From: Lingula anatina
Taxonomy: Eukaryota > Animalia > Brachiopoda
NCBI GenBank assembly: GCA_051362555.1
Contig: CM120648.1
Span: 18,100,587-18,164,586, forward strand
Direction of reading: 5' to 3'
Length of the DNA: 64,000 nt
The position numbers and the translations under genes are program-made. The notes beneath the pieces are model-generated. The model saw only the letters and a program-made list of their open reading frames with translations, was not told the origin of the DNA and ran no database searches. Below, in pieces: positions 14,216-64,000 of the stretch (position 1 is the stretch's first letter; each line of letters opens with the position of its first letter).

Positions 14216-14330
14216 GGTAAATAAACACACTGGACAAAAGAAGTGTCACCCTCTGCAGAGTAATGAAAGTTATAAGGCCTGGGTCTACTCTTAATATGAC
14301 TATTGAGTATAAAACCGCTGTACTATGGAA

Positions 14331-14754: not shown

Positions 14755-14935
14755 AACAGGACGGAGATTGTGGGATAATGTTGAACATATTTGACAAAGA
14801 AAGAGATATGATCTGACCGACTTGTAGGTATATGGAGCAAGTGTTTATGTTACTGTGATCTCCAAGCTGCAGCAACAGAAGTGAACATAAAGTTTAGCAA
14901 TCGCTGACAGAAATATTACAGGATCTACTGTCGGA

Positions 14936-40399: not shown

Positions 40400-40450
40400 C
40401 CGCTCCCCCTGGTGACAGGGAATCACCTGCCTCTCCTGACAGAGAAGCAG
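40400..40450 (+). CDS. Exon 5: duplicated 51-nt linker exon (AAPPGDRESPASPDREA)
   Basis: Paralog of 26123-26173 with conserved acceptor and GTAAGT donor; flanking introns also homologous. Confidence 0.65.
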
Positions 40451-40510
40451 GTAAGTAGTGCACATGTAGTAAAACAAGATTCCGTCTTTTGCTCAGAATC
40501 TGCGAGTGTT

Positions 40511-40552
<42 letters not shown>

Positions 40553-40700
40553 TGACATCACAAAACAAAACATACATTTTCACACTAAACACATATTACA
40601 ACATATATGCAACAGACACAAACTAACATACAGTAGTCTCATTGGACATTAACAGCACAAGGGAGTGACAGAATACGTTGCACAAAGTAACAGTACACAT

Positions 40701-41285
40701 AACACAAACTGATTAACATCGTTACAAATAAACAAACAAACAAACCAGCTTATTATCATATATGAGTCGCACCGGATTCTACATGTTACTACGTGCCATT
40801 TATACCACAGTCACAATATATGTTATTATGCCGATTTTCATAACAGAAAGCATCACTCACTTACATGATCATACAGAACAAATAAGCGTACAATAGTCTC
40901 CACTTAGCTGTGAACCCAAGTACACATAACAAGTTACTACACATGACACGATTAACATATAACGTAACATATAAACAAACAAACCAGCTTTTATCATATA
41001 CAAGTCACACCGGATTCTACATATTACTAGCGTAACACAAAACACAAACTGATTAACATCGTTACATATAAACAAACAAACCAGCTTATTATCATATATG
41101 AGTCGCACCGGATTCTACATATTACTACGTGCCATTTATACCACAGTCACAATATATGTTAATATGCCTATTGTCGGGAATAACAGAAAGCATTACTCAC
41201 TTACATGATCATACAGAACAAATAAGCGTACAGTAGTCTCCACTTAGCTGTGAACTCAGGTACACATAACAAGTTGCTACACATT
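40701..41285. repeat. Direct duplication (period about 340 bp) in the L1 3' UTR
   Basis: AACACAAACTGATTAACATCGTTAC...CACTTAGCTGTGAAC present at 40701 and 41041. Confidence 0.85.
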
Positions 41286-41455
41286 ACAAACTAACGTATA
41301 ACAAGTATCCATGAACAATCTGGTGCAACACAAAAGACTTACAGTACGGACTATCGAGATGTGAACTTAGGTACGCAAAGATATTAGACATGCACAATTA
41401 GCTATGACTCCAAACAGTAAGAGGTTGTCATACCCTCGACACGTATTGTATCATT

Positions 41456-44400
41456 CTATGTAAGTCTAAGTATTAAATTGTGCAAGCATACGTACATGGC
41501 CTTAAGGTGGCCCAAATTCTGTACTGAGTCCAGATATTTTTTAGCAAATTCGACGAAAGAAATAAGTAATAATTGTTTGTTTCTGCACCTAAAGCTGTAG
41601 ATATAGTATTTGATTAACATATTTAGGACATTATACGCATCTTTGTTATTTTCTTTTTTGTCAAGAATTCCAAATATAAATGTTGTTTTCTCTAAAGTCA
41701 TATTCAGCTTGTCTTTGATTACATTTAAAAAGGTTTCAGTTACAGAACAATCCCATAGTACATGAATAATTGTCTCCGTCTCTTTCTCGCACCTTTTGCA
41801 AAGGGGGGTGTTAACCAAACCAGTTTTTGCAAGATAACTATTTGTCGGTAATATATGTTGATTTATTTTATACTGGAACCATTTAAATTTAGGACTGATA
41901 GGAAGGTTGAAAGGCAGTTTATTTATTAGAGACCACTCTTTGTCATTAATATTAAACAATTTATTCCAATTAATTTTGCCCTTTGAAATAGAAGCATTCT
42001 TACTAAGTATTTTATAAAAATCTTGGCAGCCCTTCTTACTTTTAAAGAAGATACTTAAATATTCTGGGAGTTTAGGGAGCATTACTTCAGATTCGTTTAT
42101 ATCATGCAATTTCAAGTATCGCTTAATAATGCTTACCACCCCTTGATATTCTAGGAAGTTGGTCTGAATACCATATCGCTTATTTATTTCTTCTTGTGAG
42201 AAAAAGGTAATTGTTTTAGTGTCTTTTATAAAGTCCCTTATTGCAGATATACCTTTATTAAACCAGTGCTTATAGTATATTACCTTACTGTCTACTCTTA
42301 GGGCTTCATTATACCAGACAGGGGTGTCCAACACGGGCTTGTTTTTCCCCCTTAACTTGTCTTCCTTAACCCTGAGTTCTTTCCATGCAAGTAACACATC
42401 CCCCTAGAACCGGTTTTGGCAAACTTTTAGACATTTATTCAAATACTCATTACCACCCACTGACAAAAGTTCGAAATTTAGATATTTAGCTACGATAATT
42501 TGCCATTTTTTCCTTTTTGTATAAATACGTCTAATCCATGTTAATTTTAGTGATGATATCAGTGAAGGCAAGTGTATCATTTTGATACCACCTTCATCGT
42601 AATTTTTAATAATTATATCCCGCTTAACTTTATCGATCTTTGAGTTCCACAAAAAGTGGAAGAGGTCACTCTGAAGGTCATTGATAAACCTTTGACTAGG
42701 ATTCGGTAAGGATATAAACAAATGATTTAATTGGGAAATTATTAAGGATTTTATAATTATACACTTGCCGATGGGGGTGATCATTCTTCTGTTCCATCCA
42801 TTAAGAATAGACTTAATTTTTACTAATTTCTTATCAAAATTAAGTTTGGGGATTTGAAATAGATTAACATGAAATTCAATTCCTAAAAGATTAAACTGGT
42901 GCTTTCCCCAATCAAGATGCATATGTGGCAAAAATTTTAAATTACTGAACTTCATACGTCCTATCCATACTATTTTGGTTTTATCTTTGTTTATTTTCAA
43001 CCCTGATATTTTTGAAAATTTATCTAATTCAATCATAAGTTCGGATAAAGACTTTTCTGAGCCATCAAGCATCACTGTCGTATCGTCTGCGTATTGAGTT
43101 AATAAAATGGGGGCGTCATCAATAGTGATACTTTTTATATTATTGTTATTCTTGAGTATTATTGAGAGTATTTCCGCACATAAAATAAACAAATAGGGGG
43201 CTATTGGGTCTCCCTGCCTGCAGCCTCTTTTAATGTAAAAGGACTCTGAGAGATTGCCTCCTTGATTTATTGCTGCTTGTGCACCCTTATTAAAAGTATT
43301 TATCCATTTGATAATACTTTCACCAAAGTTAAAAAAAACTAGTACCCTGTCAATAAATTTCCACGACACAGCGTCAAAGGCCTTTTCGAAATCTAATAGC
43401 ACTAACATTCCAGGAATATCGTTATCTTCTGTGTATTGCATAATATCGTATACAGTACGGATACTTTCCCCAATGTATCTCCCGGATATAAAACCGCATT
43501 GATCGTCTGAAATAAGTTTGCCCAGGTATTTCTTGACTCTGGATGCTATGACTCCGGAGGCTATTTTATAGGTAACGTTTAACAAAGAGATCGGTCTCCA
43601 GTTTTTCAAGTATTGCTTGGGCTTTTCACCCTTAGGGAGACACGTAATTACACTTTGTCGCTGTGTAATTGAAAGTTGACCAGTCGAGTAACCCCAGTTT
43701 ATGGATCTAACAACAAAATTGCCGAGCTGTGACCAGAATACCTTAAAGAATTCGACAGTGAACCCATCCGAGCCTGGACTCTTATTACTTTTCATTTTTT
43801 TTCAGAATTTGGGAGGCTTCATTTAGACTAATTATACCCTCTAGTTCACTTGACTCAACATCTGTGAGCCTCAATGGATAATTGTGCGGTAAAATTGTGC
43901 TTAAGTCAACATCAATCACTTCATTAGACTCTGCAAATATCTGTTCGTAGTAGCATTTAATTTCTTTTAAAATTAATGTTTGGGTAGTAATTTCTTCTCC
44001 GTTATCTTTAACTATCTTAGGTATTATTTTTGAAGTGAAATTTCGGTTTTCTAGGTTTAAAAAATATTCAGTGGGTTTTTCACCCTCTTCCAGCCACTTT
44101 GTCCTGGATCTTATCATACTACCCCTTATTTTATTTTCCCTGATGTATTTTAGTTCCTCTTGTAATCTCTCTATATTATTTGCGTTTAGATTGTAATTTC
44201 TCTCCAAATTACTTATTTCTGTTATCAATTTTTTTTCTCTGTCGCCAACTAATTTTTTCTTATAAGATGAAACGGAAATGGATTTGCCCCTGATCTCCAT
44301 AAGTAGGGTCTCAAGAAAAAGTTGATCATTTACGGTAAACTGTATGTCAGAGTCCGGAATTGAGCAGATATTATTTAGGTTATAGACAGGAAGTGCATAC

Positions 44401-45227
44401 TGGATTTTTATATTATTAATAAGTTGTTTTATATTGTCTATATATTCTATATCATCAAGCAGAGAATTATTGAATTTCCATAACCCTTTACCTTTCCTAA
44501 ATGGGTTAAATTCAATATTAATCCCTACAATGGAGTGGTCGGATCTATAACTCGATTCGATAAATGAGTTTTTAATACTTCTTACAAGGTTTTCTGTCAC
44601 AAGGAAAAAATCTAGTCTCGCTTGTTTAATGGGATTTTTTCTCCTCCAAGTATATCTCTTATAACATTCATGTTGTTCTCTATACACATCAACTAAATCA
44701 TAAATTTCAATAAGTTCTAATACTTTTTTTCTTGCTTTTGGGTTGTTTATATGTCGATATGTCTGATCATAATCTATTTCTGGATTTAGAACCAAGTTGA
44801 AATCACCACAGATAATAGAGTACTCATTATCGGTATCCTGTAGCCCCAATTCTATCTGTTTATAGAAGTCGGGAGAATCAAGATTTGGACCATATATATT
44901 GATCAATGTCACTTTTCTATCTTCTAATAAACAATTTTGTAATAGAAAGTTACCAGCATCGTCTTTTTTTTCACTGATTACTTTAACATCGGCAGTGTTA
45001 TTTAAAAGTATAGCGACACCCCTCGAGTTCGACCTGTACGAGCTAAAATAGGCCTTATATCCCCACTCAGACCTAACCCTTGATTCTATTTCAGACGTAA
45101 AATGTGTGTCTTGTAGGCATAGGATATCATATTTCTGTTGCCTTAAATAAGAAAATATGTCTTTCCTTTTTTGTCTATCCCCAAGGCCCTGGCAGTTAAC
45201 GGAAACAATCTTAATACAACTTGTCAT
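41456..45227 (-). pseudogene. L1 ORF2: APE endonuclease, reverse transcriptase, C-terminal zinc finger; two lesions
   Basis: NCQGL, LQDTH, GDFN, RLDFF, SDH; KSPGSDG, WRPISLLN, LDFEKAFD, GCRQGDP, YADD; CKRC...HVLWDC; one extra A in an A8 run near 43795 and an in-frame TAG at 42404-42406. Confidence 0.9.
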
Positions 45228-45455
45228 TTGAATATACGGCTCTAATAAATGTCGAGGTTAGCTTTTTCCCTTATTTTGCTTTTCATCGCTCTCACCTCAA
45301 AACAACTTTTTACCACCACCAGATTGGCACCGTTCTTCCAAATAGCTCCACCTATCATCAACATAAAAATATAATGCAATAAGTACACATTAATTCTACT
45401 AGTGGACGAGTATAAGAAAAAAGGTAAAATTAACATAATTTGTCATTGTAGGCTA

Positions 45456-48449
45456 CCCAGACAGCCTCAATAATCTGGCCCACGTCTGGCCCAGATCTGG
45501 CAACGTCTGGCAATATCTGGGCCAGATTTTGCCAGACACTTGCCAGATCTGGGCCAAGTCTGGCAAAGTCTGGCATTTATGCCACATTTTGCCAGACACT
45601 TGCCAGATCTGGGCCAAGTCTGGCAAAGTCTGGCATTTACGCCACATTTTGCCAGATGCTGCCCAGACTTGGGCCAGATATAGTACTTTCATTTTCAATT
45701 TTTATTTTCTATTTATTTATTTTTTATTGACCAGTGAGCTGAATGCATTGAACTGACGTCATTTGATAAATTTTGATTTAATTTATCTCTCTCTTTTTTC
45801 TTCAAAGTCCCCTCCTAAGTGTGCTATTTGTTTAATTTGACTTGACATTTGAATGAATTCACTGATCTAAAACTTTTTTGGACTACTCGTTCCGCTGTTG
45901 TAAGATTCCGCTTTTTATGCTAAGCCGGTCAAGGACCCGGATGTAGCGTTTCTTAGAGTTATGGATATGAAAAAAGCACAAGCGTATCAAACTGATACAA
46001 TTTCGTTGAGTGATTTGATTCGTGGTGCGATTTATTTCGAAGGCATCAACACTGGCGACGAGGATAAACACTAGTGCAAAACTGATGAGTCAAGTTTCTT
46101 TGAAAAAAATGGAGAAAAAATGTGAAATTACGGAATTCGAACCGTACAGAAGTCCGGAGACATTGGGTCACGCTCGACGCGATGGCTAGACAGTTTAAAC
46201 TTTTCGCTGACGGAAAAAGATTGATCTTTTCAAAACCAACGAACGGCATGAATAATGAACAAAGATAGAAAATTAAAAATACATGACAAAGGAGACGCGC
46301 GCTTATGTTGTATTCAGCAGGGACAGGTGTACAACTTACAAGATATTTTCAGGACTCTCCCAAACACAGGTTAGAAACATGAATATACATAAGACAGTTA
46401 ACGCTTTGAATGAAATTGGAACACCAGAAACTGAGTATGATGAAACTGAAGTCATTTGACAAACCAAGCCAGTCTAAACATTACGAGTTTAGACATGAAA
46501 AACGAAGTAGAAACTCCCTGACTGAGAAAACATGGAACGTTGGATCACTTTGCAAAACTCTGCAAAACTGAAACTATTATTCATGTAAATGACAGCTTTG
46601 AACATGAAAATCCAGGAGTGCATATACATTTGGTGTGGGAACCAATGCACAGAAGACATGGAGGAAATAGAGGAGGTGTTAATCTCAGTGTATTACCAGA
46701 TTCAGGTGCATATTGTAATATCATTGATGAAAATACATGGAGAATGCTGAAATCCAAGAAAAATAAATGTGGCTCTTGTGGAGGACCAGAAAACAAACAG
46801 TATTATTCATGTACACGTCTGAGAAACCTTTAAAAGTGAAGGGAACATTTGAATATGACGTAAAGGCAAGCAAAGGAAGAGACCAGTAGTAGTGAAAGGA
46901 CATGGGATTTGATATGAGTTGATTAGTTTTGAGAATTTTCAGTGTGGTTTAAGGAATAAAAGTTGGAGTTCATATGCTATTCTGCAAATGTTTGAAAAGA
47001 CATTTTAAAGACTGAACTGTCAATTAACATGTTTTGAAAGGACCGTTTCTCTCCAAGAAAGGAAGGGATGTTGTGTTTGGACTTGACATTTGAATGAACT
47101 TTTGTTAACTTGGTAGAGTTACTTGTTCCATTGTTGATTCCTTTAATAATTATAAGCTTGTCAAGGAGGCGGGTGTATCATTTCTTAGTGTTATGGATTT
47201 GAAAAAAGCGCAAGCATTGCAAACTGGTTCAATTCATTGAGTGATTTGATTCGTGATGTGATTTAATTCAAAAGCATTGATACTGGGGTTTGTTTTTGTG
47301 CACATGTAATTCTCTTTTAATTGTACATCTATATCTGTGCTGGAGTATACATATTTTTTTTTCAGAATTTACATGTATGTACAGTACTGTAGCCAGCATG
47401 CAAGTTGAATTGAAACAGTTACTGCATGGTTATTTATAATTTTGTTATAACTCTCCATCATCTAAAAAAGAATGTTTTTTCATTCATTATTCAAGATTTA
47501 TTCATTACAAAACTATATTCATTAGTGATTATTATTATTAATGATATGTTTGAATTAGTTTAAAAATGACAATGTATAATATTATTTAGGTTGAGGTGTG
47601 CAAAAATATTTCCCCCTCAAATCCCCCCCCCCATGTACATGCATAATTAATTACAATTTTTGTAATTTGTGTTAATTCAGATTCGATGAGCAGCTTTGTG
47701 TTGAAAAAAAAATTGTTGTTATAACTGTTTTCTTTACATGTATGTAAGTGACATTTCCTCCTGTTAAGTGTCTGTATATTTGCCTTTTTGCAGTGTGTTT
47801 TTTTTTTTTTTTTTCAAACATACAAATTGTTTTGTACAAAAAGACAAGGAGTGGCCCTTAATTTGTTGCATGTTAGTTGCCAGCAAGGTTATATAATGTG
47901 TAATAATTTTGTTTAGGCTTTTAGCACAGAATAAATACTTGAATCTTGAATCTTGTATGTCTTTTTTTATAGTTATCTTATTGAATAATTAAAAATAATT
48001 AAAAAAAGAAAAAAAAAAACAATCTGGGCCATATGTGGTCCATGTCCGGCCCTAATCTGGCCCACATCCGGCATGCCATACCTTTGCCAGATATTGCCAG
48101 ATCTGGGCCAGATCTGGCCACATGAGCAAATGTGAAATAATAAAAAAAAAACAATCTGGGCCATATGTGGTCCATGTCTGGCCCTAATCTGGCCCATTTG
48201 AATATGATCTGGCCCATATCTGGCCCACATCTGGCATGCCATACATTTGCCAGATATTGCCAGATCTGGGCCGACATCTGGCCATATGAGCAAATGTGGA
48301 CTGGGCCAGATGTGGCAATGTCTGGGCCAGATCTGGCCCAGACATTGCCACATCTGGCCCACATGTGGCAAGCCATACCTTTTGCCAGACATTGCCAGAC
48401 GTTGCCAGATCTGGGCCAGACGTGGGCCAGATCACTGAGGCTGTCTGGG
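45456..48449. mobile_element. Non-autonomous DNA transposon (CMC/EnSpm-like ends) inserted in the L1 inter-ORF spacer
   Basis: TIR CCCAGACAGCCTCA / TGAGGCTGTCTGGG, TA on both flanks, long subterminal arrays of TCTGGC/GCCAGA repeats at 45456-45680 and 48020-48449. Confidence 0.8.
45829..47282 (+). mobile_element. Degenerate Gypsy-like LTR retrotransposon relic
   Basis: Diverged LTRs of about 220 bp (45829-46051 and 47069-47282), PBS-like TGGCGACGAGG at 46053, PPT AAGAAAGGAAGGGA before 47069, aspartic protease remnant LPDSGAYCNIIDENTW. Confidence 0.7.
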
Positions 48450-49318
48450 TATCTTATACCGTAGTGCAACAGCTTATCCGAGGTAAGGGCGTACGCCTTG
48501 AACCTCTCGCACTTACACTTGCTAGGTATTCCCTTTCACTTACACAGAATAACATGAGCTGTAAACTGTCCATTTTGACATACACACTTACACAAACGTT
48601 CACACACACACATATCCACAATACACGAGTCATCACTACAAAATACCTAGGACGTACTACGAGTCCTAGAAAAGACAAAGCAGCGGTAACACTCACGACG
48701 CTTGCATACATCAACTAGCCGTCGGTCACGTGCACAGACACGGTGATTGTATTGTTGTTACAAACTGTAAAATATCGGTATGTTCTATTTTACACATGTC
48801 GGCTGGGACGCCAAGGGGCCCTTTTTGCGTTTGTGACATGAGCGAATAATAATAGGAGTTTAGTTCCCCGTCATTGCCTATTAAGCAATATATATATTGA
48901 GCAATGTGCACATAATCGTAGCCAAATACTCCCAATAGGTACGATGTCCCCTTCTATTCGGAGCGTACGTATACCAACCGACAATGAAAATTGAGCATTG
49001 TTGAATACATCTTATATTTGCATGTATTGTCAATAGCTTAGCTAGTAGTACCACATGTATAACAGCATACCGTATCTCGAGAAACGAGAGTGTGTGGTCA
49101 TCCGGTGCCCACATCAGCAAGACGCCCCGTGAATACCTGTATTATAAAAATACATGATCAATAACTCAAAACTATATACAATTATTACTATCAAGTAAAC
49201 AACCGAGACACAGATAATCTGTACATATATTTACCATAGAAGCAGCTCACCCACACAGGCGTTTGACTATATATGTATATATACATCTTATCAAACAAAC
49301 TAACCTAGCCTACACGAT

Positions 49319-50551
49319 CTAATCTAATTGGAGAGCGTCAATTGCGGACTCTTGATAATAACTGAATCTCTCTGAATTTAAGTGCTGTCCAACCACCCTT
49401 GACACTACAATCAATCTATTTTCTACCCTCTTGGCTTCTAGGAGGTTGGCCAGTGTTTTGGCTACACTTACATCGTTATTGTCATTGTAATATACTGTCC
49501 AGGCACCGCCACTTTTTATTCTGTAGGCGTAAACAAGCGAGGCTCCGCTTACTTGGCCGCCTGCTATTATGGAGGCAAGCGCAGATTGTGCGTCTTCGAC
49601 TGAATTCACTCTTGTAGAGATTCCCATAAAGGAGTTACCCTTTGCTTTAGTTTTCTTTTCAGAGAACTTTATTTCATGTCGATGGTTTTTCCTATGTGTT
49701 GGTAGGTTTTTTAAACAGTTATCGGGCTTGCGATCATCTGGGGTATATAAGGAGTTATTTATATAGAGTTTTTCGCCCACTAACCTGTGTTTGATATTTT
49801 TTGCCCTTAATTCTTTCATGACGGGATAGAGCGTTCTTCTTCTTTCTTCCACCTCCTTGGGATACTGGTCAGTTATCCTTATGTAGGTGCCCTTCAGATT
49901 TTTGGTATATTTCATAACAGTTCTTTTGTCATGGAATGTCGTACATTTTGCTATTATTGCCCGCGGTTTGGGTCCGTTAGTTACCGATCCAATGCGATGA
50001 ACCCTATCAAAAGACACGGTTTCTTCCGCGGGGATCTTCATCTGTTGAATCAGCACCTGTCTCAGTGTATTCTCCACGTTTTCCTGCGGTCCAGTCTCGG
50101 GAATGTTATGAAATAGTAGGTTATCTCTCATGGATCTCGTTTGTAGATTTATCATTATCTGGTGATCCGTGTCGACTTGTCTTTGTAGGCTTTGTACTCT
50201 CTGCTCGCTAATATTGAGTTGTTCTCTTAGCACATTGTTCTCAGTTTCAAGAGCACTTACTTTCTCGTCCAGTTGGGTCATATTTTCATCGAGACTTTTA
50301 ACCGAAATCTCAACTTGTTTGAGAGAATCTTTGAAGGTTTTTGTAATGGCGTCCAGTTTATCTTCGAACTTTGCCAAACAATCACTGATAATGTCCCTGA
50401 TTTCGGTATTGTCTGTAATGAGATATTTGTCACCCTCTTTTTTTCTTGAGCTTTTATCCATATTGCTCTCTTTGATGTGGAGTTTGGCCAACGGTGTGTT
50501 TTCTGTACTGGATGATGAACTATGGGAAGTCCTTTGTCTTCCCCGTTTCAT
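49319..50551 (-). CDS. L1 ORF1 (coiled coil, RRM/CTD-like) with extra C-terminal IMPACT/UPF0029-like domain, 410 aa
   Basis: Heptad region, SMRDNLLFHNIPE, DRVHRIG...PRAIIAK, ITDQYPKEVEERRRTL; tail KGNSFMG...VYAYRI...ENRLIVVSR...HLNSERF. Confidence 0.85.
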   Translation of the reverse strand: MKRGRQRTSHSSSSSTENTPLAKLHIKESNMDKSSRKKEGDKYLITDNTEIRDIISDCLAKFEDKLDAITKTFKDSLKQVEISVKSLDENMTQLDEKVSALETENNVLREQLNISEQRVQSLQRQVDTDHQIMINLQTRSMRDNLLFHNIPETGPQENVENTLRQVLIQQMKIPAEETVSFDRVHRIGSVTNGPKPRAIIAKCTTFHDKRTVMKYTKNLKGTYIRITDQYPKEVEERRRTLYPVMKELRAKNIKHRLVGEKLYINNSLYTPDDRKPDNCLKNLPTHRKNHRHEIKFSEKKTKAKGNSFMGISTRVNSVEDAQSALASIIAGGQVSGASLVYAYRIKSGGAWTVYYNDNNDVSVAKTLANLLEAKRVENRLIVVSRVVGQHLNSERFSYYQESAIDALQLD

Positions 50552-51292
50552 TGTTTCATTGGCGCGATTTTTAAACGCACAAAAAATTCTCTTTTATCGT
50601 CACAGTACCGGGAACCCTGCCCCTTTCCGCTGTCATTTCACTTTATATTCATCCTCACACAGTCAGCCACAGTCCAACTACAACCGATCATATATAATTT
50701 AAGTATTTTATCACCGTGGCCCCAGCTTGAGTTCTACACCGCCGCCATCTTGTTCTCGTTCCGAGTGTTGTTCTTAGCTTGTCGATTAAGTATGTGAGTT
50801 CCTGCATTCTTATTTTCATCAAACTGTATTAATAATGTTACATTAAAATTGACTATACCTTACAATTTTAATTGATTTTAATTAATGTTAAAACATTCAG
50901 TGTTTATCACCCCGTTATGTTTTGAGCTTACCCACTTGTATTCATCAGAGAGGATACATTTTTAAGAAAAAAATTTTTTTTCGCAAATTGCCGTTAAACC
51001 TTCAGAAACAGACGAAAGCTTCTAATTTATTTGATAACTGTTTCACAAAGTTAATTGACACTAAACACATTCAAATTTTGTGAATAATTACGATACTTTT
51101 TTATGTTAAAAAGTTTTATTTTAACTGCACTGTTTATTGTACAGTCCTTTTCAAAGGTGAAAGTGGATCTCATACCTCTGGGGAAGAAAACATGAGAAGA
51201 ATAAGAATGTTGACGATATGTCGATGTATGAACAGTCCCTGACAAATGAAATAAATTAGATTGAAAGCAAGTCTATAAAGATTAAGGTCTAG

Positions 51293-51360
<68 letters not shown>

Positions 51361-51584
51361 TTTGAAGAAGGCACATCAGCTGAAAACTCAATCGGGCGCT
51401 TGATACCAATTATACTTATTACATGCATTTGCAATCTAATTTATTTATTTTTATACAATATTTATACAATATACTGCGGGATTAATACGATGATTTAGAT
51501 GAATATGCACGCATTGCAATACATAACAATATGCATTATGCTAAAATCAGTTAGTTCGGCCATAGCTTATTGTATTCTTCGCAG

Positions 51585-51830
51585 TGGCAGAAAGGGACCA
51601 TCTAGATGATATTGACAAGGAGCTATTGGAAAAAATTGAGAAAATTGCCCGAGGAGAAGATGTGGAGCCAGAGAAACAGGTCACAATTTGGGATTTTGCA
51701 GGACAGGATGTCTACTACACCACGCACCAAACATTCCTCTCAGAGCGGATCATCTACTTGTTGGTATTCCGACTTGACCAGGACCTCGATGATAAAATCC
51801 GTGTATACAGGGGAGAGAAGACACTGAAAG
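51585..51830 (+). CDS. Exon 6: Roc G3 region
   Basis: VTIWDFAGQDVYYTTHQTFLSERIIYLLVF is a canonical Roc motif; CAG acceptor, GTATTG donor; phase 1-1. Confidence 0.9.
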
Positions 51831-51957
51831 GTATTGTTGAGCTTTATGTATATATCTTTACATGTATAAGCTACTCAGGGCCCTCATGTAAATGGCCTGT
51901 CAGCTGTGTGTAATTTCTTTATTAAAAGACCCACATTTTTAAATCTCTCTATTGCTC

Positions 51958-52028: not shown

Positions 52029-55000
52029 ATTGTACCACCAGCATTAGCGCTGGCGGTACACATGGTTTGTCCGGATCGTTCCACCGGCTCCGCCGGCTCC
52101 TGCGGCTCCGCCGGACGGCTACCGTTACCACTTCTCCTCCTAGACGGTAAGGACCCCGTACCCATCTCTTGGATTTAGGTCACCTATAATCTCAACTCGT
52201 TCCACGTAAAATTTGGGCTTTGTCCGTATTGGGGTCTAGGTGTGGCACTCATTGCAATGCACCCTTGTCTAAAAATGGCAAAATTAAATGCTAATTATCT
52301 ACCCTACGGATGGAATTATGGGAAAAATTTCTACAGACGGCTTTCCAAAAGTCATATGTGTAGATTTCAAATATGCCCTTGGATTTGACCTTTGACCTTT
52401 ATTTCAAGGTCAAATGGGCCAAAATTTTCAAAAAAATTAATTTTTTTACGAAAAAAAAATTATTTGCCCTGTTATTCAGACACCACACAGACTTAACCAA
52501 TAATATTATTGGAAGTTGTTACCCTTCAGGTCATCTTTCATCTCCGTGAATTTGGGGTCAATCGGTGCATTTTCACGGGTGTAGCGGCCATAAGATACCG
52601 AAACTGAAAACTGTCTCTAATTTGGGAACCGTTAACGCTAGAGACCCATTCTTTTTTGCATTTTGTAGAGCATGTAAAGCCCAACACTGAAGGTGGTCTC
52701 CGTTTTTTTGTATTCCATACGGTTTTCGAGTTACGCTGTATCAAAAAGTACATATTGGTGGTGAAAGCAAAACGTGCAGTACGGTTATGGATAATAAATT
52801 TTGAACTCCAAAAAAAAAAATATATATAAGGCTTGGCAAAGCAGACAACATGTGGTCAAAAATGACATTATTTCATCAAATTTGAACTTCTGGAACTTCA
52901 GAGCACCTCCCATTTCAAGAATTTTGACCAAAATGACCTTTTCTTTATTTTAATTAATTTTTTTCTGTAGGAAATTTATGGCACATTATGGTAACTCCAA
53001 AATTATAACATTTAGTCCCTTATATCTCCAAAACTGGCAGAGATAGGTCCAAAGTTACTATTGAAGTTGAATAGGAAGTCATATACTGGCAATCTTACTG
53101 TGACCTTGAAATTGACCTTTGACCTACTTTTCACCATGAATTGAACTTTGCAAATTTTGCTTCCCTTTTATCTCCAAAACTGGCAGAGATAGGTCCATAG
53201 TTACTATTGAAGTTGAATAGGAAGTCATATACTGGCAATCTAAATGTGACCTTAAAATTGACCTTTGGCCTACTTTTCACCATGAACTGAACTTTATGAA
53301 TTTTGCTTCCCTTTTATCTCCAAAACTGGCAGAGATAGGTCCATAGATACTATTGAACTTGAATAGGAAGTCATATACTGGCAATCTAAATGTGACCTTA
53401 AAATTGACCTTTGACCTACTTTTCACCATGAACTGAACTCTGCTAATTTCTTTCTCTTTTAACTCCAAACCTGGCAGAGATAGGTTCATAGTTACTATTG
53501 AAGTTGAATAGGAAGTCATATACTGGCAATCTATATGTGACCTTGAAATTGACCTTTGACCTACTTTTCACCATGAATTGAACTTTGCAAATTTTGCTTC
53601 CATTTTATCTCCAAAACTGGCACAGATAGGTCCATAGTTGCTCTTGAACTTGAATAGGAAGTCATCTCCTGGCAATCTAAGTGTGACCTTGAAATTGACC
53701 TTTGACCTACTTATTATCATGAACTGAACTCTGCTAATTTCTTTCTCTTTTAACTCCAAACCTGGCAGAGATAGGTCCATAGTTACTATTGAAGTTAAAT
53801 ATGAAGTCATATTCCGGCAATTTACTGTTACCTTGAAATTGACCTTTGACCTTCTTTTCACCATGAACTGAACTTTGCATATTTTGCTTCCCTTTTATCT
53901 TCAAAACTGGCAGAGATATGTCCATGGTTACTATTGAACTTGAATAGGAAGTCATATACTGGCAATCTTACTGTGACCTTGAAATTGACATTTGACCTAC
54001 TTTTCACCATGAACTGAACTTTGCAAATTTTGCTTCCATTTTATCTCCAAAGTTACGCTGTATCAAAAAGTACATTGGTGGTGAAAGCAAAATGTGCAGT
54101 ACGGTAATGGATAATAAATTTTGAACTCCAGAAAAATAAATCATAAGGCTTGGCAAAGCAGACAACTCATGGTCAAAAATGACATTATATCATCAAATTT
54201 GAACATCTCGAACTTCAGAACACCTCCTATTTCAAGAATTTTGACCAAAATGACCTTTTCTTTATTTTAATTAATTATTTCTGTAGGAAATTTATGGCAC
54301 ATTATGGTAACTCCAAAATTATAACATTTAGTCCCTTATATCTCCAAAACTGGCAGAGATAGGTCCATAGTTACTATTGAAGTTGAATAGGAAGTCATAT
54401 ACTGGCAATCTTACTGTGACCTTGAAATTGACCTTTGACCTACTTTTCACCATGAACTGAACTTTGCAAATTTTGCTTCCCTTTTATCTCCAAAACTGGC
54501 AGAAAGGTCCATAGTTACTATTGAAGTTGAATAGGAAGTCATATACTGGCAATCTTAATGTGACCTTAAAATTGACCTTTGGCCTACTTTTCACCATGAA
54601 CTGAACTTTACGAATTTTGCTTCCCTTTTATCTCCAAAACTGGCAGAGATAGGTACTATTAAACTTGAATAGAAGTCATATACTGGCAATTTACTGTGAC
54701 CTTGAAATTGACCTTTGACCTACTTTTCACCATGAACTGAACTTTGCAAATTTTGCTTCCCTTTTATCTCCAAAACTGGCAGAAAGGTCCATAGTTACTA
54801 TTGAAGTTGAATAGGAAGTCATATACTGGCAATCTTACTGTGACCTTGAAATTGACCTTTGACCTACTTTTCACCATGAACTGAACTTTGCAAATTTTGC
54901 TTCCCTTTTATCTCCAAAACTGGCAGAAAGGTCCATAGTTACTATTGAAGTTGAATAGGAAGTCATATACTGGCAATCTTACTGTGACCTTGAAATTGAC

Positions 55001-55503
55001 CTTTGACCTACTTTTCACCATGAACTGAACTTTGCAAATTTTGCTTCCCTTTTATCTCCAAAACTGGCAGAAAGGTCCATAGTTACTATTGAAGTTGAAT
55101 AGGAAGTCATATACTGGCAATCTTAATGTGACCTTAAAATTGACCTTTGGCCTACTTTTCACCATGAACTGAACTTTACGAATTTTGCTTCCCTTTTATC
55201 TCCAAAACTGGCAGAGATAGGTACTATTAAACTTGAATAGAAGTCATATACTGGCAATTTACTGTGACCTTGAAATTGACCTTTGACCTACCTTATGATG
55301 AATTCACTTTGATTGTACCATTTTAAGTTATGTATATTTTTTGCATATTCTGAAAATTCTTGTTGATTGCATTTTTACAGCTTGTCAAGCACAAAACTGG
55401 TGGCTGTGTCCCTTACTTTGTGTATGTGGGGGTCTATACGAATGCGCTTGCTCCAGCTGGTGGTACAATATTTGGAGGCGGTATCGCCTCTCTGATCCTC
55501 TAG
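52029..55503 (+). mobile_element. HINE family A, complete copy with two arrays of 146-bp repeats
   Basis: Same ends as 36101-37979; arrays at about 53020-54050 and 54335-55290; TATCTCC recurs at 53023, 53169 and 53315. Confidence 0.8.
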
Positions 55504-55713
55504 TTTTAAATGGTTCCGATGAGTGTTTTAGATTTTAATATTGTAGTAATTTTAAGGATTTTAGTTATATTATCCATTGTAAGCCGCCCAATAAGAAACA
55601 TTATTATTATTATTATTATATTAATTGGCGCTATTTTTTAGCAATGCTGAGGAGAAAACACTGATTAATATTCATCTTTGCAATTACCTCAAGGCTTTAT
55701 ATACATTTTTCAG

Positions 55714-55838
55714 AGTTTATTATGTTTTGGTTAAACTCAATCCATATGCACACTATTGGAAAATTGAGGGAAGAAGACAAAAATGCCATGCCATACGTCT
55801 TGATTATTGGAACTCATAAGGACATGTTATGCGCACAG
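55714..55838 (+). CDS. Exon 7: Roc G4 region
   Basis: EFIMFWLNSIHMHT...PYVLIIGTHKD; TTTTTCAG acceptor, CAG|GTGAAA donor; phase 1 to 0. Confidence 0.9.
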
Positions 55839-56216
55839 GTGAAAATGCTTTTCTTATCACAATTATTCAATTACTACCATACTTATTCTATGTATAATTT
55901 GTATCCCTTCAACCATATCACGATTCCTGACGAGTGACTTAATTATTTAGAAACTTTTCACTATGTGACTATTTGTGGATGGCATGATTTAATGTTGGGG
56001 GAAAAGGGTGTTCCTTGCCCCCTGTACTCCATCCTAATTTTATATGTTCATTGCAACATACCCCATTTCTCAACTTGAACAAAGTGGACTATATCATATA
56101 CACACATACACATACACACACCCCGGTAAATGTTTTCCTTTACACTGACAATTTAACATTATTATATGGTAATGAACAACAACTACAAAAATGTCTTATC
56201 TAGTTTTTATTCATAG

Positions 56217-57399
56217 GGCGACGTTGAAAAGATTTTTGATAAACTCAAGAAGTGTCTCGACGACAGGCAGGTACTCAAGGACCACGTCTACCGATATTTT
56301 GCCATAAGCAACTTGGCCGAAGATGATGGGGAGTTCGCTGAAATAAAAAAAGCGATCGAAGATTTGTGCGGTTATAGCAGCAACAGTATTGCTACCGTTC
56401 AACATCTTTCAGTGAATTGGATTAAATTGGAAATGAATTTGGCAGAGAAGAGTGAAGAAACCCCCATCATATCTATTGAAAAACTGAGGGAAATGGCAAA
56501 AAGGGTAGGACTCCCTGATGAAGAATTACAAGAAAAGTTCATTCCTTACCATCACCGTCAAGGCGACATCCTACACTTCAAAGTTGATGGACTGGAAAAT
56601 GTCGTCATAATAGATCCACTTTGGTTAGCAGATGTGTTTTCTGCCATCATGACCAATGCCAGCAGTCAACCTGGAGGCAGTCACTTTGATCTCCTGAAAG
56701 ACGATCTGAAAAGAGGAGTGCTCAATGAGGAGGTATTTGATGAATATCTAAAACAAATCAAAATGGCCGAAAAAAAGACTGAAATCATTCAACTTATGCT
56801 GCATTTCGACTTGATGTTAGAAATATCCCAATCAGTTGAAAACCCTCTGCCCGGGTCTGGAAAGAGAAGATTCGTCGTGCCCAGTATGCTGGTATCCAAT
56901 AACAGTGTAAATAACGCCTTGTCTGAGACGGATCCACAGAAATATTTGCTTATCGCATTCCCTCACATTCTGTTTCCTACCGGGTTGTTTCATCTTCTGA
57001 TCATCCGTCTTCTTAGGAAGTATAGAGCTCAGGAATATAAACATAACATTCCAGTTGTTGGGTTTGACCATGCCTCCTTCCGTTTGGGAGACGAACAGTC
57101 GGTGCTCCATCTCGCCATTGAAGAAAGGGCCATGAGAATGATGATAACAAATGCTACTGGAAACAAACCAAAACCTGACATATACTCCAATGCACGGGAA
57201 ACCGTTGAAAAAGAACTGTCAACTCTTCGGGACACGTACTGTCCCAGGATGCAGTTAGGCTTTTGCATTCGGTTAAAAGACAAAGGAAAAGATATTCCAA
57301 TAAAAGCAGAAGACGTCCAAGAAAACGATGAGATATGTAGATCTGTAGAGGGCACTGAAATGCCAATTGATGTGACACCGTATCGTGTTTGGTTTTCAG
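56217..57399 (+). CDS. Exon 8: Roc G5 plus COR domain
   Basis: FAISN, then NWIKLE, HHRQGDILHF...VVIIDPLWLADVFSAI, FVVPSML, FPTGLFHLLIIRLL; TAG acceptor, TCAG|GTAAGC donor. Confidence 0.9.
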
Positions 57400-58135
57400 G
57401 TAAGCATTAAAATTTTAGGTAGTTTTGCTGTGAACAGACATTGTTCCTGAATATAATTAGGGGTAATGTAGTCATTGAAATCGGTGTTAAACTGATGTAA
57501 ATGCAACTAATCATATTGGGTGATGTACTAAGATTTACATGAAGAGAATTAATATTTCAAATTGTTGCCAATAAACCAAACTTTATATATTTTAAAATAA
57601 TGTAACTTGATAAATACCCAAAGGTATTTTTTATAATCCCCGAAAATGATATATCAGCATTTTTCCCCTTGGCAAATTTTGCCCATCGCCTTTGTTAGAA
57701 CAATATAAATATCTCCCACAAAATCATGCAATTTATATTTTAATCATTCCAACAATATGAGTTTTACATGGGCATCAACGTCTGTGTGAGGGTAAGACTG
57801 TTGCAATTCTATGTGCCGAACATTTTTCATATAAACTGTCCCATATTAGATTTATTACCCAGCCATGCACGTGGCTAGAATTGTTTTAACTTCTAATTTA
57901 AAAACAAATGCCCAAGCATATTTGGAAAACATTTAATGACAAAAATAAATACTATGCCCTGGTCGTATTTTGAGAATTTACCTGCGGTGCAGAAGGTAAA
58001 TGTACAGCAGGTTACCTTTTGCTCACAACACATATCTATTAATAAGTTTCTTCATACTTAAATTACATGTATATTATTCATTGCTAATTATTGTTCATCA
58101 TGTGCATATTCTTGTAATCCTTCTTATTCTTACAG

Positions 58136-58168
58136 TGAGTGCACAGGCAGTACAAGCAAGTGATCCAG
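58136..58168 (+). CDS. Exon 9: 33-nt linker micro-exon (VSAQAVQASDP)
   Basis: Pyrimidine tract plus TTACAG, CAG|GTAATT donor, phase 1-1. Confidence 0.55.
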
Positions 58169-58474
58169 GTAATTTTGTATTTGGTAGTGCTTAGCTTAGG
58201 CTAAGAAGTACAAGCATTATTCTTATTTTTACTTCTATTTTTATCTTTTAACTTACAAATCTTCAATATAAAGAAATAGCGTATTGTTACTAGCATGTAC
58301 CCCCTGTTCATATGACAGTACATTTCACTGACTACATATTTCTCCCATAATGCAGTGGTGGTTGCCGCATATTTTACACAAACACACACACACTAGTATA
58401 CTACTCTATCTCTCTTTCCCTATAAAATTCTTGTACAAAAAGCATTGATCATTATCATATTTTTCTATTAGTAG

Positions 58475-59226
58475 GTGTGAATGCCCCAGATGTGTCATCT
58501 GTTTATACACAGAGGTTTGCAAGGCTGAGTTTTCTCGTTATTGAACTTGGAACGAAAGTCATTAGAACTTTCTTTCTCAAGGATGTTGTTAGGCCTGGCA
58601 TCACTAATGGTGAGCACATCAGTGATAAAGATGCAGTGCTTCAGTTTTTTGGTAAGCATGACGTGATAAGGGAACTTGAGAAACTCAAGAAAACAAAAGT
58701 CATATATGCTTCTCAGTGGAATCTTTTGTACCCTGCCTCTGGTCATACAGATGTGGAAACGTTTGACATTACATTGCTGGTGTTATTGATAAGAAATCTT
58801 CACCCAGACAAAGCCAACCTGAAATGGTCAGCGCTCAAAGAAAATGCCACTTTATCTTCCTCTCCACAAACAACACAAGGTTTCATTGACCACATCCAAC
58901 GGCTTAAGAATGTCAGGAACTATATACAGCATTCCGCCACATTTGGGATCCAAGACATGGAGAAATTCTGCACGAAATGGGAAATCGCCTGTGCTTCTGT
59001 TCTAGCACTTGGTGCAGATCCAAATGAAGTGGAAAAGGTACAGAAATCCATCTTTAGCATACAGGAGATAGATACAATAGTGTGTGAAATACGCAGCTCG
59101 GCCGAAGATAACAAACGGCATTTCGACAACAGATTTGACAGGCTTGAATTATTAATATTCTCTGCATGTGCCGTTCTCTTTGCCGTCCTCATTGCGTTAG
59201 CCATAAATTACCAGTGGTGGATTTAG
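58475..59226 (+). CDS. Exon 10: DZIP3/hRUL138-like HEPN domain plus C-terminal transmembrane helix
   Basis: RFARLSFLVIELGTKVIR, SQWNLLYP, FDITLLVLLIRNL, HIQRLKNVRNYIQH (RxxxxH), terminal LLIFSACAVLFAVLIALAINYQWWI then stop. Confidence 0.85.
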
Positions 59227-59988
59227 GTGGGGAGGGGGTCAGGGGGATCCTGATTTCTGAAAAAAAATCACACTAGTATTCCCCTCTTGAAATTAGAATT
59301 TTGACTAGCTAAATTATAGTTCTAAATAGAACTGAATGAAACTGTTCTCCCTATAAAGTATCAAATTTCTTCGGGGCCTTTTGTATCTCATGGAACTGAA
59401 TCAGTTGCCAGTTTTTCATGTTACCCGTAGTGCATTATACAAGAGGGTAAGAGTGATTATGCTTTTATGTAACAGTGCATCAAAATTGGCCAAAACATTA
59501 TTTTGTGCACTTTTTTTCTGTAGTCTGAATATTTCACAGTTTAACTTTTGCTGCCTTGTTTCTTGGTGTCTGTATATTTGCAAGCTTTGTATATTTTTTT
59601 AATTGAAATGTTGGAATATAAGTAAAAGTAAAATGTCTGGATATTAGGTAAGATTTTTTGAAAATATTTACCAGATTACACATAGACCTCGACCCCGGAT
59701 TATGGAACGATATTTGACGTTTTTCAGCTTTGCACAGTCTGCGTATAAAAATGAACGTAATCTAATCTCTAATACTTTGCATGTAGCTACGATAGAGCTT
59801 TATTTACTATCTTGTAAAGCTTAATCCATATGATTGGGGTTACTATTGGAGAAAAACGCTAAAATAATGGTTAACTTCTTGTTGTTCTCAAACCCCGGAT
59901 TATGGAACAAAACCGGAAGTGCGCAGATAACGTTGCGTCAGAGATTGTTAGATAAGATGCAAGGCAATATGTAGCGCAGGCGGTCTAT

Positions 59989-62549
59989 TAACCGATTACA
60001 GTGACGTCATATTTGCTCCGTAACACTAGTCCCGCGGCCATGCTGGAGGGAATGAACGACGGGGAATAGTAGCGTAAATATAGGTAAACCAAAGAAAATA
60101 AAGTACACTTCATATCACGATCAAGGACACCAAAGGGAAAAGGATATATACAAGCTGAGGCTTCAGCTGCTCAGCGGGATCGACCGATATGAACTCAAGA
60201 CAGTCTAAAAACGTGAAATCCTACTAAATGCTACTTACCCAACATCGTGTTGTCAGAAGATAGTTCAGTTATCTTGTACTTCATTTTTCTTGTTCATTGG
60301 GTAATAACAGTTATAGTTTGAGAGAGTTTAATGTGTAATCATAAGTTTAACCTTAAATAGAAGCAACTGTTTTCATAAAGGATAGATATAAGAAATTTAA
60401 GCTGATCATCAGGATAAACCCTTGTGGATTCAAGGAAGAATGTATGATTGTCTTATGACATGAAATATTGCTGTTAGTTATGACTTATCTTTACATCGTG
60501 AAGCTGTCAGAAATTATTTCAGCATTCTTGTACTTCATATTGGTTCATTAGAAAGTACATGTAACAAGACTGTTGTTAATTCATATAAGCAACATTGTTA
60601 GCATTTTATTATTAGTTCAGTCATTCACAGAAGCATTTGTTAGGCACTACAAATATCCTCAAACCTCAGTTTACGTGGGACTTAGAGAATGGGAATTTGC
60701 CATGGGACTATACACTTGATATCAATGGAGCAATAGAAACTATGTCAATGATGAAAAAGACATGTCCTTTGTATCAAAATAAAGGTGGTAAGTTGTGTTG
60801 TAAATAAGTTTTCAAAATACATCTACATGTACTGTCATAAAAAGTATTGTATCAAACTGATTTTATAAAATTTAATATACCATTTGCATTGAAAATATTT
60901 TGCTAGGTATTCAGTGAACAAAATTCATATATTTTAAATTTACTTTAAAACTGCAATATCAGGTATTTGTTGTTCTCTTTTTTTAATGTAAAGCCTAACT
61001 ATATTGGGGTTTTCAGATGCTATTGTTTATACAGAAGTAAAGTATGCAGAACATTTGCTCTATACCATCATCAACTTTTTAAATTATTTCAGCATTCTTG
61101 TACTTCATTTTGGTTCATTAGAAAGTACATGTAACGAGACTGTTGTTTGAGAGAGTTTAATATTCACCATGAATGCAACCATTCATATAAGCAACATTGT
61201 TAGGATTTTATTATTATTCAGTCATTCACAGAAGCAAGGCATTTTTCACACTTATGTATTTATGATTTCCAATGTAATATAACAATAATTCAGTTCATGA
61301 ATTGATTTCTACAACCATTTGCTTAAACATATAGGAAAAGTGCACATTTTGTATGAATAAAAGTGAACATGAAATGCTGAGTTCTGAGTGTCGCTTCAAT
61401 TAAATAACTCCTGTCATGCACTGGATTTCACTCTCCTGATGTTCAGATCCTGTCTCCTCAGCTGGTCACAAAGATCTAGGAATATTTTTTGCTGCTTCTA
61501 CCTTGTGTGTCATCTAGCTGCCTTTTGTACGTGTCATCAAAAGCTTCCGTTTTTTTTTTTTTTTTAATAATTTACTTGCACCCAATCAGTGTGGCTTGGT
61601 GGGAAATGCTTGATCAATTTCCTAAATGTAAATTAATATAAAGATAACAATAGTGATTTTTATTCATATTATAACTTACAACATTACAGTTGAAAGGAGC
61701 AGAATTTAACATTTTTACAGAGGAAAGTGCAAAATTATTTCATGAGCTAGGTTATTAAAGTTATATGTCAATTACACCTGAGGTAGAATTTACTTGCAAA
61801 ATAAAATTACTCTTATCACTACACCAAATCGAAAATTAAGTCACTAACTTCCAAATACATTTCATACAGGTAATTGATTTAATTGGCCAGCTCAGCTGCG
61901 TACATTACAAATATAGCCTTGACACTAATTGGGAATAATGCTAACCAGGTATAAAAGAGGTAGGTGACAGCCGATAAAATCTAGAGAGCACCGTAACTGA
62001 TAACAAATTACACCCAAGGCAATAGGTGAGTCTTCATTATAAAAGTCGAAACCCTGCCTGGGTATGTCAACACGTTTTAACAAATTAACACACTCTCCAC
62101 CCACACTTTTTGGGCACTACTTTAAATATATACGTTCGCTCCAAACGTACACACCTAGGTCTTTGGTGTTCTACTGTTTTTTCTTTTATGGTAAAATCTG
62201 CACAGTTGGCTCTTCATTCTTTGCTATAAAATAAATTAGTTTTATCCTTTACTTTTCTGAAGAGTCTTGATTCAAAGCCACCTCGCCGTGTCTCCTCCGT
62301 TTATGGTTTTAGTTCCTTCACCATGGATTTTTACCACTGCAGGCAGTCTGTGAACGCTTGTAAAGTTAGTTACCTTCTCTCGGCCAAATACCCTGCAGTA
62401 ATTCATCATTTTGCTCGGTTAAATATGAAAGAAAATACAGAAAACGAAAACTGAACTACAGACATGGCTTGTTCATGCGCAGCAGACGATTCCGGTCTCC
62501 CTCCAGTATGGCTGCCGTTTGTTTTGATGACGCAGGCTCTAATGGGTCA
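59989..62549. mobile_element. Degenerate ISL2EU/Harbinger-group DNA transposon
   Basis: Imperfect TIRs T(A/G)ACC(G/C)ATTA(C/G)AG with AT flanks, inverted GC(G/A)GCCAT(G/A)CTGGAGGGA motifs, minus-strand THAP-like remnant MNYCRVFG...HRLPAVVKIHGE, plus-strand YKLRLQLLSGIDRYEL. Confidence 0.5.
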
Positions 62550-63460
62550 ATAAAAGACAATAAAACGGCAAATGCGCATTATATTGCGAATATCAATGAA
62601 CATAACAGCAGTTGTTATTCATATTTAGTTGGTCTTCTACTTTTAAACACAAATAGGGGCCTATTGCTAAAAAATGGAATAGTCCACTCATTTACCACTG
62701 CCTTGATCGGATTATGGAACAAAACGAGAAGTTGCCGCTACGTCGGAGTATCGAAGCGATATTTAGTAGTCTGGTCATTTAAAATGCCAAATTGAAAATA
62801 CTGTATTCATTATTATGAAAGAATAATATTGATATTTCTCATTTTATTCTCATCGATCATTCATTTGGCCAGCCTTCAGGTAACAACACCAGTAATGATT
62901 CAAAATAAAATCTTTAATTCATGATAACAAAACTAGCAATTAACATTAACAGCTCACACACCACCAACAAAGAGTTTATCGAAAGTGTGACAAATACAAT
63001 AAAAATAAATAAATAAAAAAAGACCGAGAACTCATGTAACAGACTAGTGCTGTGACCTAACAAAGAGATGAATGTATTCAGTTTAACAGCGCTGACCTTT
63101 ATAAAATGCATTAAACCTTTAACTCCATAAAACGAAATCACTGCAATTTATTCTATTATTATACTGTCTCGCAACTCTGTTCACCATATGGAAAAATAAT
63201 GTGCGTTTGTGTTATGTACGTATGTATGTTTATTTTTACGTTGCGTTGTTTGTCACGCACAAGAACATATCACTTGTAGGCCCATGTACTTTTGCGGTAT
63301 AAGTAAGAAAAAAAAAACAATATAAATCTTTAAAAAATATATAAAACAAAAGAACTCAACCAATGTTTCTCCTTTACTGAGGTAAATTCCAGCAGATATA
63401 ACACAGGAAACGTCCAAAAATGTAGTGGTTTAAGCGCAAGTGAAATGTTCTTGCGCGTTA

Positions 63461-63700
63461 AGCCTAGGTCCCAAATACGTTTTGGACGCACGGTTTTTTA
63501 GTTCCTTGCGTCCGGCTAGGACGTAGCTAGATCGCACGTAGCGGCTGTTGATCATGTCGAAAAGTTACTACGTGCTGTTTGCGTCTTCCAAAAGTCGCAC
63601 GATGGATGTGCTCCTCACACACAAACTCCCAAGTTTTTCCCATTTTTTTTTGGCCGTAGACCACACGTAGCAGCCCGTACGTTCGGTTGGGACCTAGGCT
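63461..63700. mobile_element. PIF/Harbinger MITE (240 bp)
   Basis: TIR AGCCTAGGTCCCAA / TTGGGACCTAGGCT with TTA TSD. Confidence 0.85.
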
Positions 63701-64000
63701 TTACAAACAACGCAACGTAAATTTTTTTTCTCTCTCTTCTTCATTCTTATCTTTTCTACGTACGTTTCACCTCCAATGCCCTCTGTGCCTTTCGCTCTCG
63801 TACCTCAGCCTTCTTCCTCTCCCTCTCCACGCCCGCTCTTCTCTTCTCCTCTTTCTCCATTCTTCGCTTATTGCCATCTTCGGCTTATCTCAACCCCCAG
63901 TCACTCACTATAATAAGGCAGTAGTGGACTAGAGCTGCCTCATCAGAGTGACTGAGGGCCAACTTCCCATAACCACCTCCCTTGAGAGCACCTGTGGTAT

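Follow-up and report, generated by a model that had tools for sequence, protein, structure and literature searches.

Results

Gene Structure

The window, by which we mean the whole stretch of 64,000 nucleotides of Lingula anatina DNA that was analysed, holds on its forward strand a gene that we model in ten exons. The model encodes 1258 residues with no internal stop, GT and AG bound every intron, and the domains follow one another in the order NHL propeller, Roc with motifs G1 to G5, COR, DZIP3-type HEPN, a helix, and a hydrophobic tail. The G motifs read GPYGVGKT, TTG, WDFAG, THKD, and AISN, and Roc is directly followed by COR, the arrangement that defines ROCO proteins (Pfam Roc and COR-A matches, with RNA joining the exons of G3, G4, and COR). 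The upstream open frames with Pfam matches span 56217–57407 (COR-A), 51566–51910 and 24967–25242 (Roc), and 14891–15886 (NHL).

The predicted first coding exon (14936–15881) encodes a short leader and an NHL beta-propeller, a candidate sensor (Pfam NHL, E 7e-19), and closes on a phase-1 GT donor. The P-loop (G1) and the G2 threonine lie in a Roc exon at 24989–25219 (Pfam Roc, E 4.2e-6; AG/GT, phase 1-1), followed by a Roc insert exon at 25669–25824, in frame and bounded by AG and GT. Two copies of a symmetric mini-exon of 51 nt would extend this insert with residues rich in Pro, Ser, and Asp, one at 26123–26173, recognised by its sequence pattern (two matches against 0.02 expected), and one at 40400–40450, within a duplicated block that is 87% identical over 214 nt. 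Paralogs carry one to three mini-exon-like units (P0001, P0002, and P0011, with one in P0001), which suggests that the length of the Roc insert varies by exon duplication or skipping. Downstream lie the Roc exon with G3 (51585–51830; Pfam Roc, E 3.6e-8; supported by loose read ends), the Roc exon with G4 (55714–55838; stranded reads and a joint to 56217), the exon of G5 and COR (56217–57399; Pfam COR-A, E 3.4e-22; depth 37–54 in run X15), a linker exon of 33 nt with RNA joints on both sides (58136–58168), and the last coding exon (58472–59226), which encodes the HEPN domain, a long helix, the hydrophobic tail, and the stop. The COR exon ends in VWFS, at the phase-1 joint where paralogs switch effector; a single-sequence structural model of this exon is too uncertain to be of use (pLDDT 33.6).

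Four RNA runs bearing the same species label were mapped on 55400–63900 at 90% likeness. In two stranded runs from one study the exons are covered on the expected strand, with depths over 58524–59091 of 31–35 and 12–15; the other two runs give depths of 2–4 and 0 there, and expression of the locus differs more than tenfold between runs. The joint 55838 to 56217 is carried by 40+12 reads, 57399 to 58136 by 11 reads, with 7+7 further reads that differ at two letters as the paralogs do (paralog or allele type), and 58168 to 58472 by 6+3 reads, while loose read ends before 55712 match the 3′ end of exon 51585–51830 with one difference (45+24 reads). RNA joints of this kind link the last five exons. 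The mapped reads include some from paralogs or alleles (448 of 2160 in run X15 have at least 99% likeness), and the data show that the exons from G3 to the last are spliced together and that the gene, or close paralogs of it, are expressed. RNA support begins at exon 51585; the exons further 5′ rest on sequence, phase, and paralogs.

These joints, together with the continuous ten-exon frame, rule out a stand-alone HEPN gene. The initial annotation had presented 58475–59226 as a HEPN protein in its own right; the stretch is instead the C-terminal module of a Roc-COR GTPase, RNA-spliced to the COR and Roc exons, and the spliced exon begins at 58472. We have very little doubt that Roc, COR, HEPN, and tail belong to one protein. 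A tandem acceptor, TAGTAG, occupies 58469–58474, and the listed reads (6+3) use its first AG; the models P0008 and P0009 differ by one residue at this acceptor, suggesting alternative use.

The upstream part of the model draws on the Lingula ROCO protein P0015. The NHL exon and the first 311 aa of P0015 are 87% identical, and P0015 runs from NHL into Roc at the same residue as the window exon, which supports the join of NHL to Roc in the window. The Roc-COR of P0015 is only 26% identical, and a near-identical NHL on so distant a core suggests that the sensor exon moved between distant ROCO genes. From the sequence, we are fairly confident that NHL is joined to Roc-COR-HEPN. It is unlikely that the main product instead starts at the Met in exon 25669–25824 and lacks both NHL and P-loop. 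Such a protein would be an RNase that has lost GTPase activity, dimerises through COR, sits on the membrane, and is regulated through its expression or its partners; the NHL exon would then encode another protein, terminated by the stop that this exon itself supplies. All four long models of the subfamily (P0001, P0002, P0010, and P0011) begin after the P-loop exon and align from that Met, a late start that may mean either truncated models or a genuinely shorter form; just past the donor of the NHL exon come an in-frame stop and an AATAAA, and the more than tenfold range in expression would suit control at that level. The P-loop exon is nevertheless intact and in phase, 449 nt upstream of exon 25669–25824, in P0015 the same NHL exon runs on into Roc, and RefSeq models of this family are often fragments, P0007–P0009 being COR-HEPN pieces.

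Other Features of the Window

The intron after the second mini-exon holds an apparently full-length LINE on the minus strand (40504–50774), flanked by copies of GAGTGTTGTTCT, a direct repeat of 12 bp, at 40504 and 50763. Its ORF1 (49322–50593) encodes a coiled coil and a C-terminal UPF0029/IMPACT-like match (E 6.4e-8); frames resembling endonuclease and reverse transcriptase lie in three pieces at 41459–45257 (domain names assigned by eye), and the element has a poly(A) tail. Two related hAT-type elements (17346–22069 and 11029–13098) share the same terminal inverted repeats, and the longer, with an open transposase frame of 752 aa (19411–21666), lies within the predicted first intron. The repeats flanking them look like 5–6 bp; those of hAT elements are 8 bp. 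Arrays of a 144–146 bp unit occur inside a dispersed repeat element in two introns (53016–55291 and 36898–37606). At 13277–14220, ahead of the NHL exon, exon-like stretches recognised by eye may be part of another gene or of one derived from a transposon. A spliced minus-strand transcript, 61364–62783 (joint 61620–62154, CT..AC, in three runs), runs towards the ROCO gene from beyond its 3′ end; we noticed no long ORF in it, and it is possibly a lncRNA or a short gene.

The HEPN Domain

The reading frame 58477–59223 of the last exon yields 249 residues, of which residues 57–190 (58645–59046) match Pfam HEPN_DZIP3 (PF18738) with E 2.5e-19 and 69.9 bits against a curated cut-off of 27, so that the proposed assignment to this family holds. 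Within the match, FDITLLVLLIRNL precedes RNYIQH (58915–58932), an R-N-x3-H motif. The initial annotation took RNYIQH for the catalytic RxxxxH, and the comparison bears out its placement: the motif sits at the family's conserved position, where the R, N, and H columns are invariant in nine of nine aligned sequences of 22–91% identity. It is this conserved position in the alignment that gives RNYIQH its weight, not the presence of a bare Rx4H, which arises in 1457 of 5000 shuffles of the last-exon protein (72 of 5000 for RNx3H). Among the matches listed, R-N..H is kept in 125 of 130 HEPN domains and in 99 of the 100 that follow COR, counts that are biased because sequences bearing the motif seeded the profile, and that are not independent, most coming from related Mytilus paralogs; they cover 120 listed proteins, five earlier proteins, and the window model. 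Conservation in relatives, on which the earlier reading depended, is thus what these domains display.

An AlphaFold2 model built on the HEPN alignment has a helical domain at residues 9–190 and one long helix entering the tail, with a mean pLDDT of 79. Its structural matches include Csm6 (Z 6.6, rmsd 3.3, 112 aligned) and AbiF (Z 6.2), and HEPN RNases make up four of the ten top rows of the fold search, all with Z below 8 and tied with unrelated helical bundles; a Foldseek search of the model against the PDB returned none at E ≤ 0.001. The fold search is consistent with a HEPN RNase fold. We consider the HEPN domain likely to be an active RNase. That it is non-catalytic, an RNA-binding or pairing module of a signalling scaffold, strikes us as rather unlikely: the structural match to active enzymes is weak and inactive HEPN families are listed in PMC3710099 (here and below, publications are cited for the portions of their text available to us), but R, N, and H are retained across brachiopod, bivalve, and coral sequences at about 22–30% identity, and Rx4-6H is present in 194 of 202 pearl-oyster proteins (PMC9646362).

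The Hydrophobic Tail

A predicted tail-anchor helix of 19 residues, LLIFSACAVLFAVLIALAI (59149–59205), is followed by NYQWWI, six residues with no K or R, and then by the stop. Its 19-residue Kyte-Doolittle mean, 3.01, is the top value of the whole model, the next being 1.92, within COR, and the hydrophobic helix reported near the stop is therefore confirmed. Only two of 5000 shuffles of the last-exon protein reach 3.0, which rules out chance as the source of this hydrophobicity. The initial annotation had also argued from an apparent lack of a signal peptide; the interval that it considered does not contain the N-terminus, but in the ten-exon model the first 315 residues have no 19-residue window above 0.95. 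By hydropathy, then, the protein shows what characterises tail anchors: one hydrophobic helix no more than about 30 residues from the C-terminus, and no signal peptide. Transcripts that splice out before the tail had been named as a possible objection; at a threshold of three reads, no listed joint departs from the last exon ahead of the tail, and a rarer isoform may still exist.

A tail-anchored topology is accordingly likely to be right, but the likeness to MAVS that came with it is weak, because the tail is strongly hydrophobic and no basic residue follows it. Mitochondrial tail anchors tend to be less hydrophobic and to have a positively charged end (PMC13261788). The Lingula tail has neither the moderate hydrophobicity nor the basic end of a MAVS-like tail, the charge rule being a tendency, and its uncharged end appears to fit the ER better than a MAVS-like mitochondrial site.

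Four of five Lingula paralog loci have a hydrophobic tail. In P0008 and P0009 it comprises 15–16 residues with a basic end, closing on DKKWI; in P0007 it is broken by charged residues, and P0002 has none. Among the matches listed, a hydrophobic C-terminal stretch after HEPN occurs in six of 126 proteins, namely the window model, four paralogs from Lingula, and a Mytilus model that we regard as doubtful (P0272), in which it stands behind a shortened HEPN. The absence of a tail from P0002 and from nearly all bivalve Roc-COR-HEPN proteins indicates that the architecture does not need it, and on these comparisons the predicted tail anchor is a local addition, nearly confined to Lingula. A Roc-COR protein of Antedon mediterranea (P0065) lacks HEPN and has a hydrophobic helix of its own at the C-terminus (KD19 3.13); it stands apart on the COR tree, which suggests that ROCO proteins may have gained tail anchors on more than one occasion.

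Paralogs and the Effector Position

Closest to the predicted protein are RefSeq models from Lingula anatina: P0001 is 85% identical over 821 aa, P0007–P0009 are 88–89% identical over the last exon, and P0002 is 60% identical over the exon. Three RefSeq paralog clusters (P0001, P0002, and P0009) show the order Roc-COR-HEPN or COR-HEPN. With the COR exon as query, 660 proteins were found at E 0.001, and 59 of the 150 listed were scanned with Pfam. One relative, P0010, which is 75% identical in COR, ends in a caspase, and P0011 ends in a short tail with a word that we take to be RHIM-like. The effector changes directly after WFS in seven of the seven subfamily proteins that reach that point, and the window has a phase-1 intron there. 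On a COR tree of 35 chosen rows, with long branches flagged, five Lingula subfamily proteins form one clade (SH-aLRT 100), separate from the HEPN-bearing CORs of bivalves; what follows VWFS within this clade is HEPN with a tail, HEPN alone, a caspase, or the short RHIM-like tail. The occurrence of HEPN, caspase, or short tail at one joint places HEPN in an effector slot. Among the matches listed, other COR relatives carry Death, TIR, DED, GT4, or OTU at that position.

Two further proteins were noted. P0005, a caspase-like fragment clustered with P0001 and encoded on the same Lingula contig under an adjacent accession, may represent an alternative set of effector exons of the P0001 locus or a neighbouring gene. 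P0016, from Owenia fusiformis, combines a Bcl-2 domain, Roc-COR, and a caspase in one predicted protein.

Distribution of the Architecture

A HEPN profile search returned 138 long proteins, and COR precedes HEPN in 92 of the 120 listed, mostly from Mytilus with some from oyster. Clusters with these domains in the ESM Atlas are mainly molluscan (103 members, COR-A in 96%, HEPN in 80%). Judged from such predicted proteins, mussels and oysters commonly carry Roc-COR-HEPN. On a HEPN tree of 42 rows chosen from 130 domains, which has long branches and, being unrooted, gives no order of events, the ROCO-borne HEPN domains of Lingula, Mytilus, and Saccostrea fall in separate places, those of Lingula among NACHT-linked HEPNs. 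With labels fixed before the tree was seen, a single origin of all HEPN domains in Roc-COR-HEPN proteins was rejected (p-AU 0.0003; 20 rows versus 22). We infer that the architecture arose by repeated fusion.

Discussion

The initial annotation emphasised a tail-anchored HEPN protein; the modular receptor in which Roc-COR is joined to a putative RNase is a stronger finding than the tail anchor. We lean towards the view that this Roc-COR GTPase with HEPN and membrane tail, likely led by NHL, is an immune effector combining sensor, switch, and RNase on the cytosolic face of the ER, and that the Roc-COR switch gates the RNase in defence is likewise somewhat favoured. A single C-terminal helix is inserted after translation (PMC13261788), and the tail would enter the membrane in this way, more likely that of the ER, and leave the remainder of the protein in the cytosol. 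A ligand on the NHL propeller would shift the monomer-dimer cycle of Roc-COR; in Roco proteins the C-terminal half of COR mediates dimerisation and the monomer-dimer state changes with the nucleotide, and LRRK2 is more active as a membrane-bound dimer (PMC6337361). COR dimerisation would then pair two HEPN domains into one composite active site, two juxtaposed motifs being what HEPN RNases require (bioRxiv 10.1101/760058), and the RNase would cut nearby RNA (host mRNA, rRNA, tRNA, or invader RNA), leading to a translation stop or cell death. If it follows the bacterial model, the protein would be active as a dimer that is either empty or bound to GDP. The initial annotation had suggested that crowding in two dimensions could aid dimerisation; crowding may contribute, but Roc-COR would offer more specific control than crowding alone.

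That a caspase stands in place of HEPN in the effector slot of a paralog suggests a role in defence or cell death, not in housekeeping. IRE1 is itself membrane-bound, at the ER. A homeostatic or stress RNase of the IRE1 kind, trimming ER-bound host mRNA with no role in sensing pathogens, is quite improbable, for although the tail features fit the ER and IRE1 is a HEPN RNase activated by homodimerisation (10.1101/760058), the recent paralog expansion, the caspase swap, and repeated independent fusion are typical of conflict genes, and the Lingula protein has no luminal sensor, only six residues following the tail.

The proposed immune effector can be set beside several known systems. Prokaryotic LRR-Roc-COR proteins carry at least 24 kinds of effector, and two Thioflexothrix proteins in the supplement of Kaur et al. 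(2021; PMC8195603) combine LRR, AP-GTPase, COR, and HEPN. The Lingula gene shares with prokaryotic AP-GTPase-COR systems (PMC8195603) a predicted repeat sensor, Roc-COR, and a C-terminal effector that varies on a constant core among paralogs, whereas those systems have an N-terminal LRR sensor and a prokaryotic host and this is a spliced animal gene with introns, NHL in place of LRR, a DZIP3-type HEPN, and a C-terminal membrane tail. By analogy, the Lingula gene would work like these conflict systems, but we do not class it among them. COR combined with HEPN had no match in the searched part of the metazoan supplement of Kaur et al. (2021), which does hold a coral protein with HEPN N-terminal to an LRRK-like Roc-COR (PMC8195603).

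DZIP3-type HEPN is regarded as a putative animal immune RNase, found mainly on NACHT proteins (PMC3710099, PMC9646362). The Lingula domain belongs to the same Pfam family as DZIP3/hRUL138-like HEPN proteins, including the HEPN-NACHT receptors of oyster and coral, with which it has in common Rx4H with N at position 2, lineage-specific expansion, and a proposed role as RNase effector; those domains, however, are mostly N-terminal to a NACHT ATPase, whereas the Lingula HEPN is C-terminal to a GTPase and predicted to be tethered. The fusion list in Table 1 of PMC3710099, as available, contains no Roc-COR and no TM, and its supplement text gave no match when searched.

With IRE1 and RNase L, of the KEN type, the Lingula protein would share a sensor, a nucleotide-binding switch, and a HEPN activated as a homodimer (10.1101/760058), but its switch is Roc-COR rather than a kinase or pseudokinase, its HEPN family differs, and it has a predicted tail anchor where IRE1 is a type I protein with a luminal sensor. 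The candidate immune receptors of the ROCO class in brown algae (PMC11378527) resemble it in gene expansion and exon shuffling; they shuffle single LRR exons, whereas Lingula changes whole sensor and effector exons, and "HEPN" has no occurrence in PMC11378527. The Roc-COR core with G1 to G5 is shared with LRRK2, DAPK1, and bacterial CtRoco, but the Lingula protein has no kinase, and its membrane attachment is predicted to be permanent rather than recruited (PMC6337361). ROCO-TIR proteins have been noted in Aplysia (PMC9334734). In the literature searched, mostly open papers with supplements in part, we found no account of an animal Roc-COR-HEPN family, no description of an NHL sensor on Roc-COR-HEPN or of a tail-anchored HEPN, and no biochemical test of any DZIP3-type HEPN. 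Bacterial LRR-Roc-COR-HEPN is already known, then, and the animal form appears undescribed.

We speculate, tentatively and with some doubt, that lophotrochozoans have several times built an analogue of RNase L and IRE1 on an LRRK2-type switch, that Lingula swaps sensor and effector exons as cassettes, and that the ER-tethered, GTP-gated RNase encoded by this copy destroys membrane-associated RNA on infection. If true, such an RNase would be a missing antiviral RNase arm of invertebrates. For LRRK2, the way in which Roc-COR governs an output domain is a matter of continuing debate (PMC6337361). Since HEPN works only as a dimer, a Roc-COR-HEPN fusion would report the state of its dimer as RNA cleavage, which would make a simple assay of that state, and Roc-COR biology would, if this is true, gain a direct enzymatic read-out of the monomer-dimer cycle. 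The Lingula paralogs, with or without a tail, with HEPN or caspase, and with a shared NHL on unrelated cores, form a natural series that serves tests of how modular immune receptors evolve in animals.
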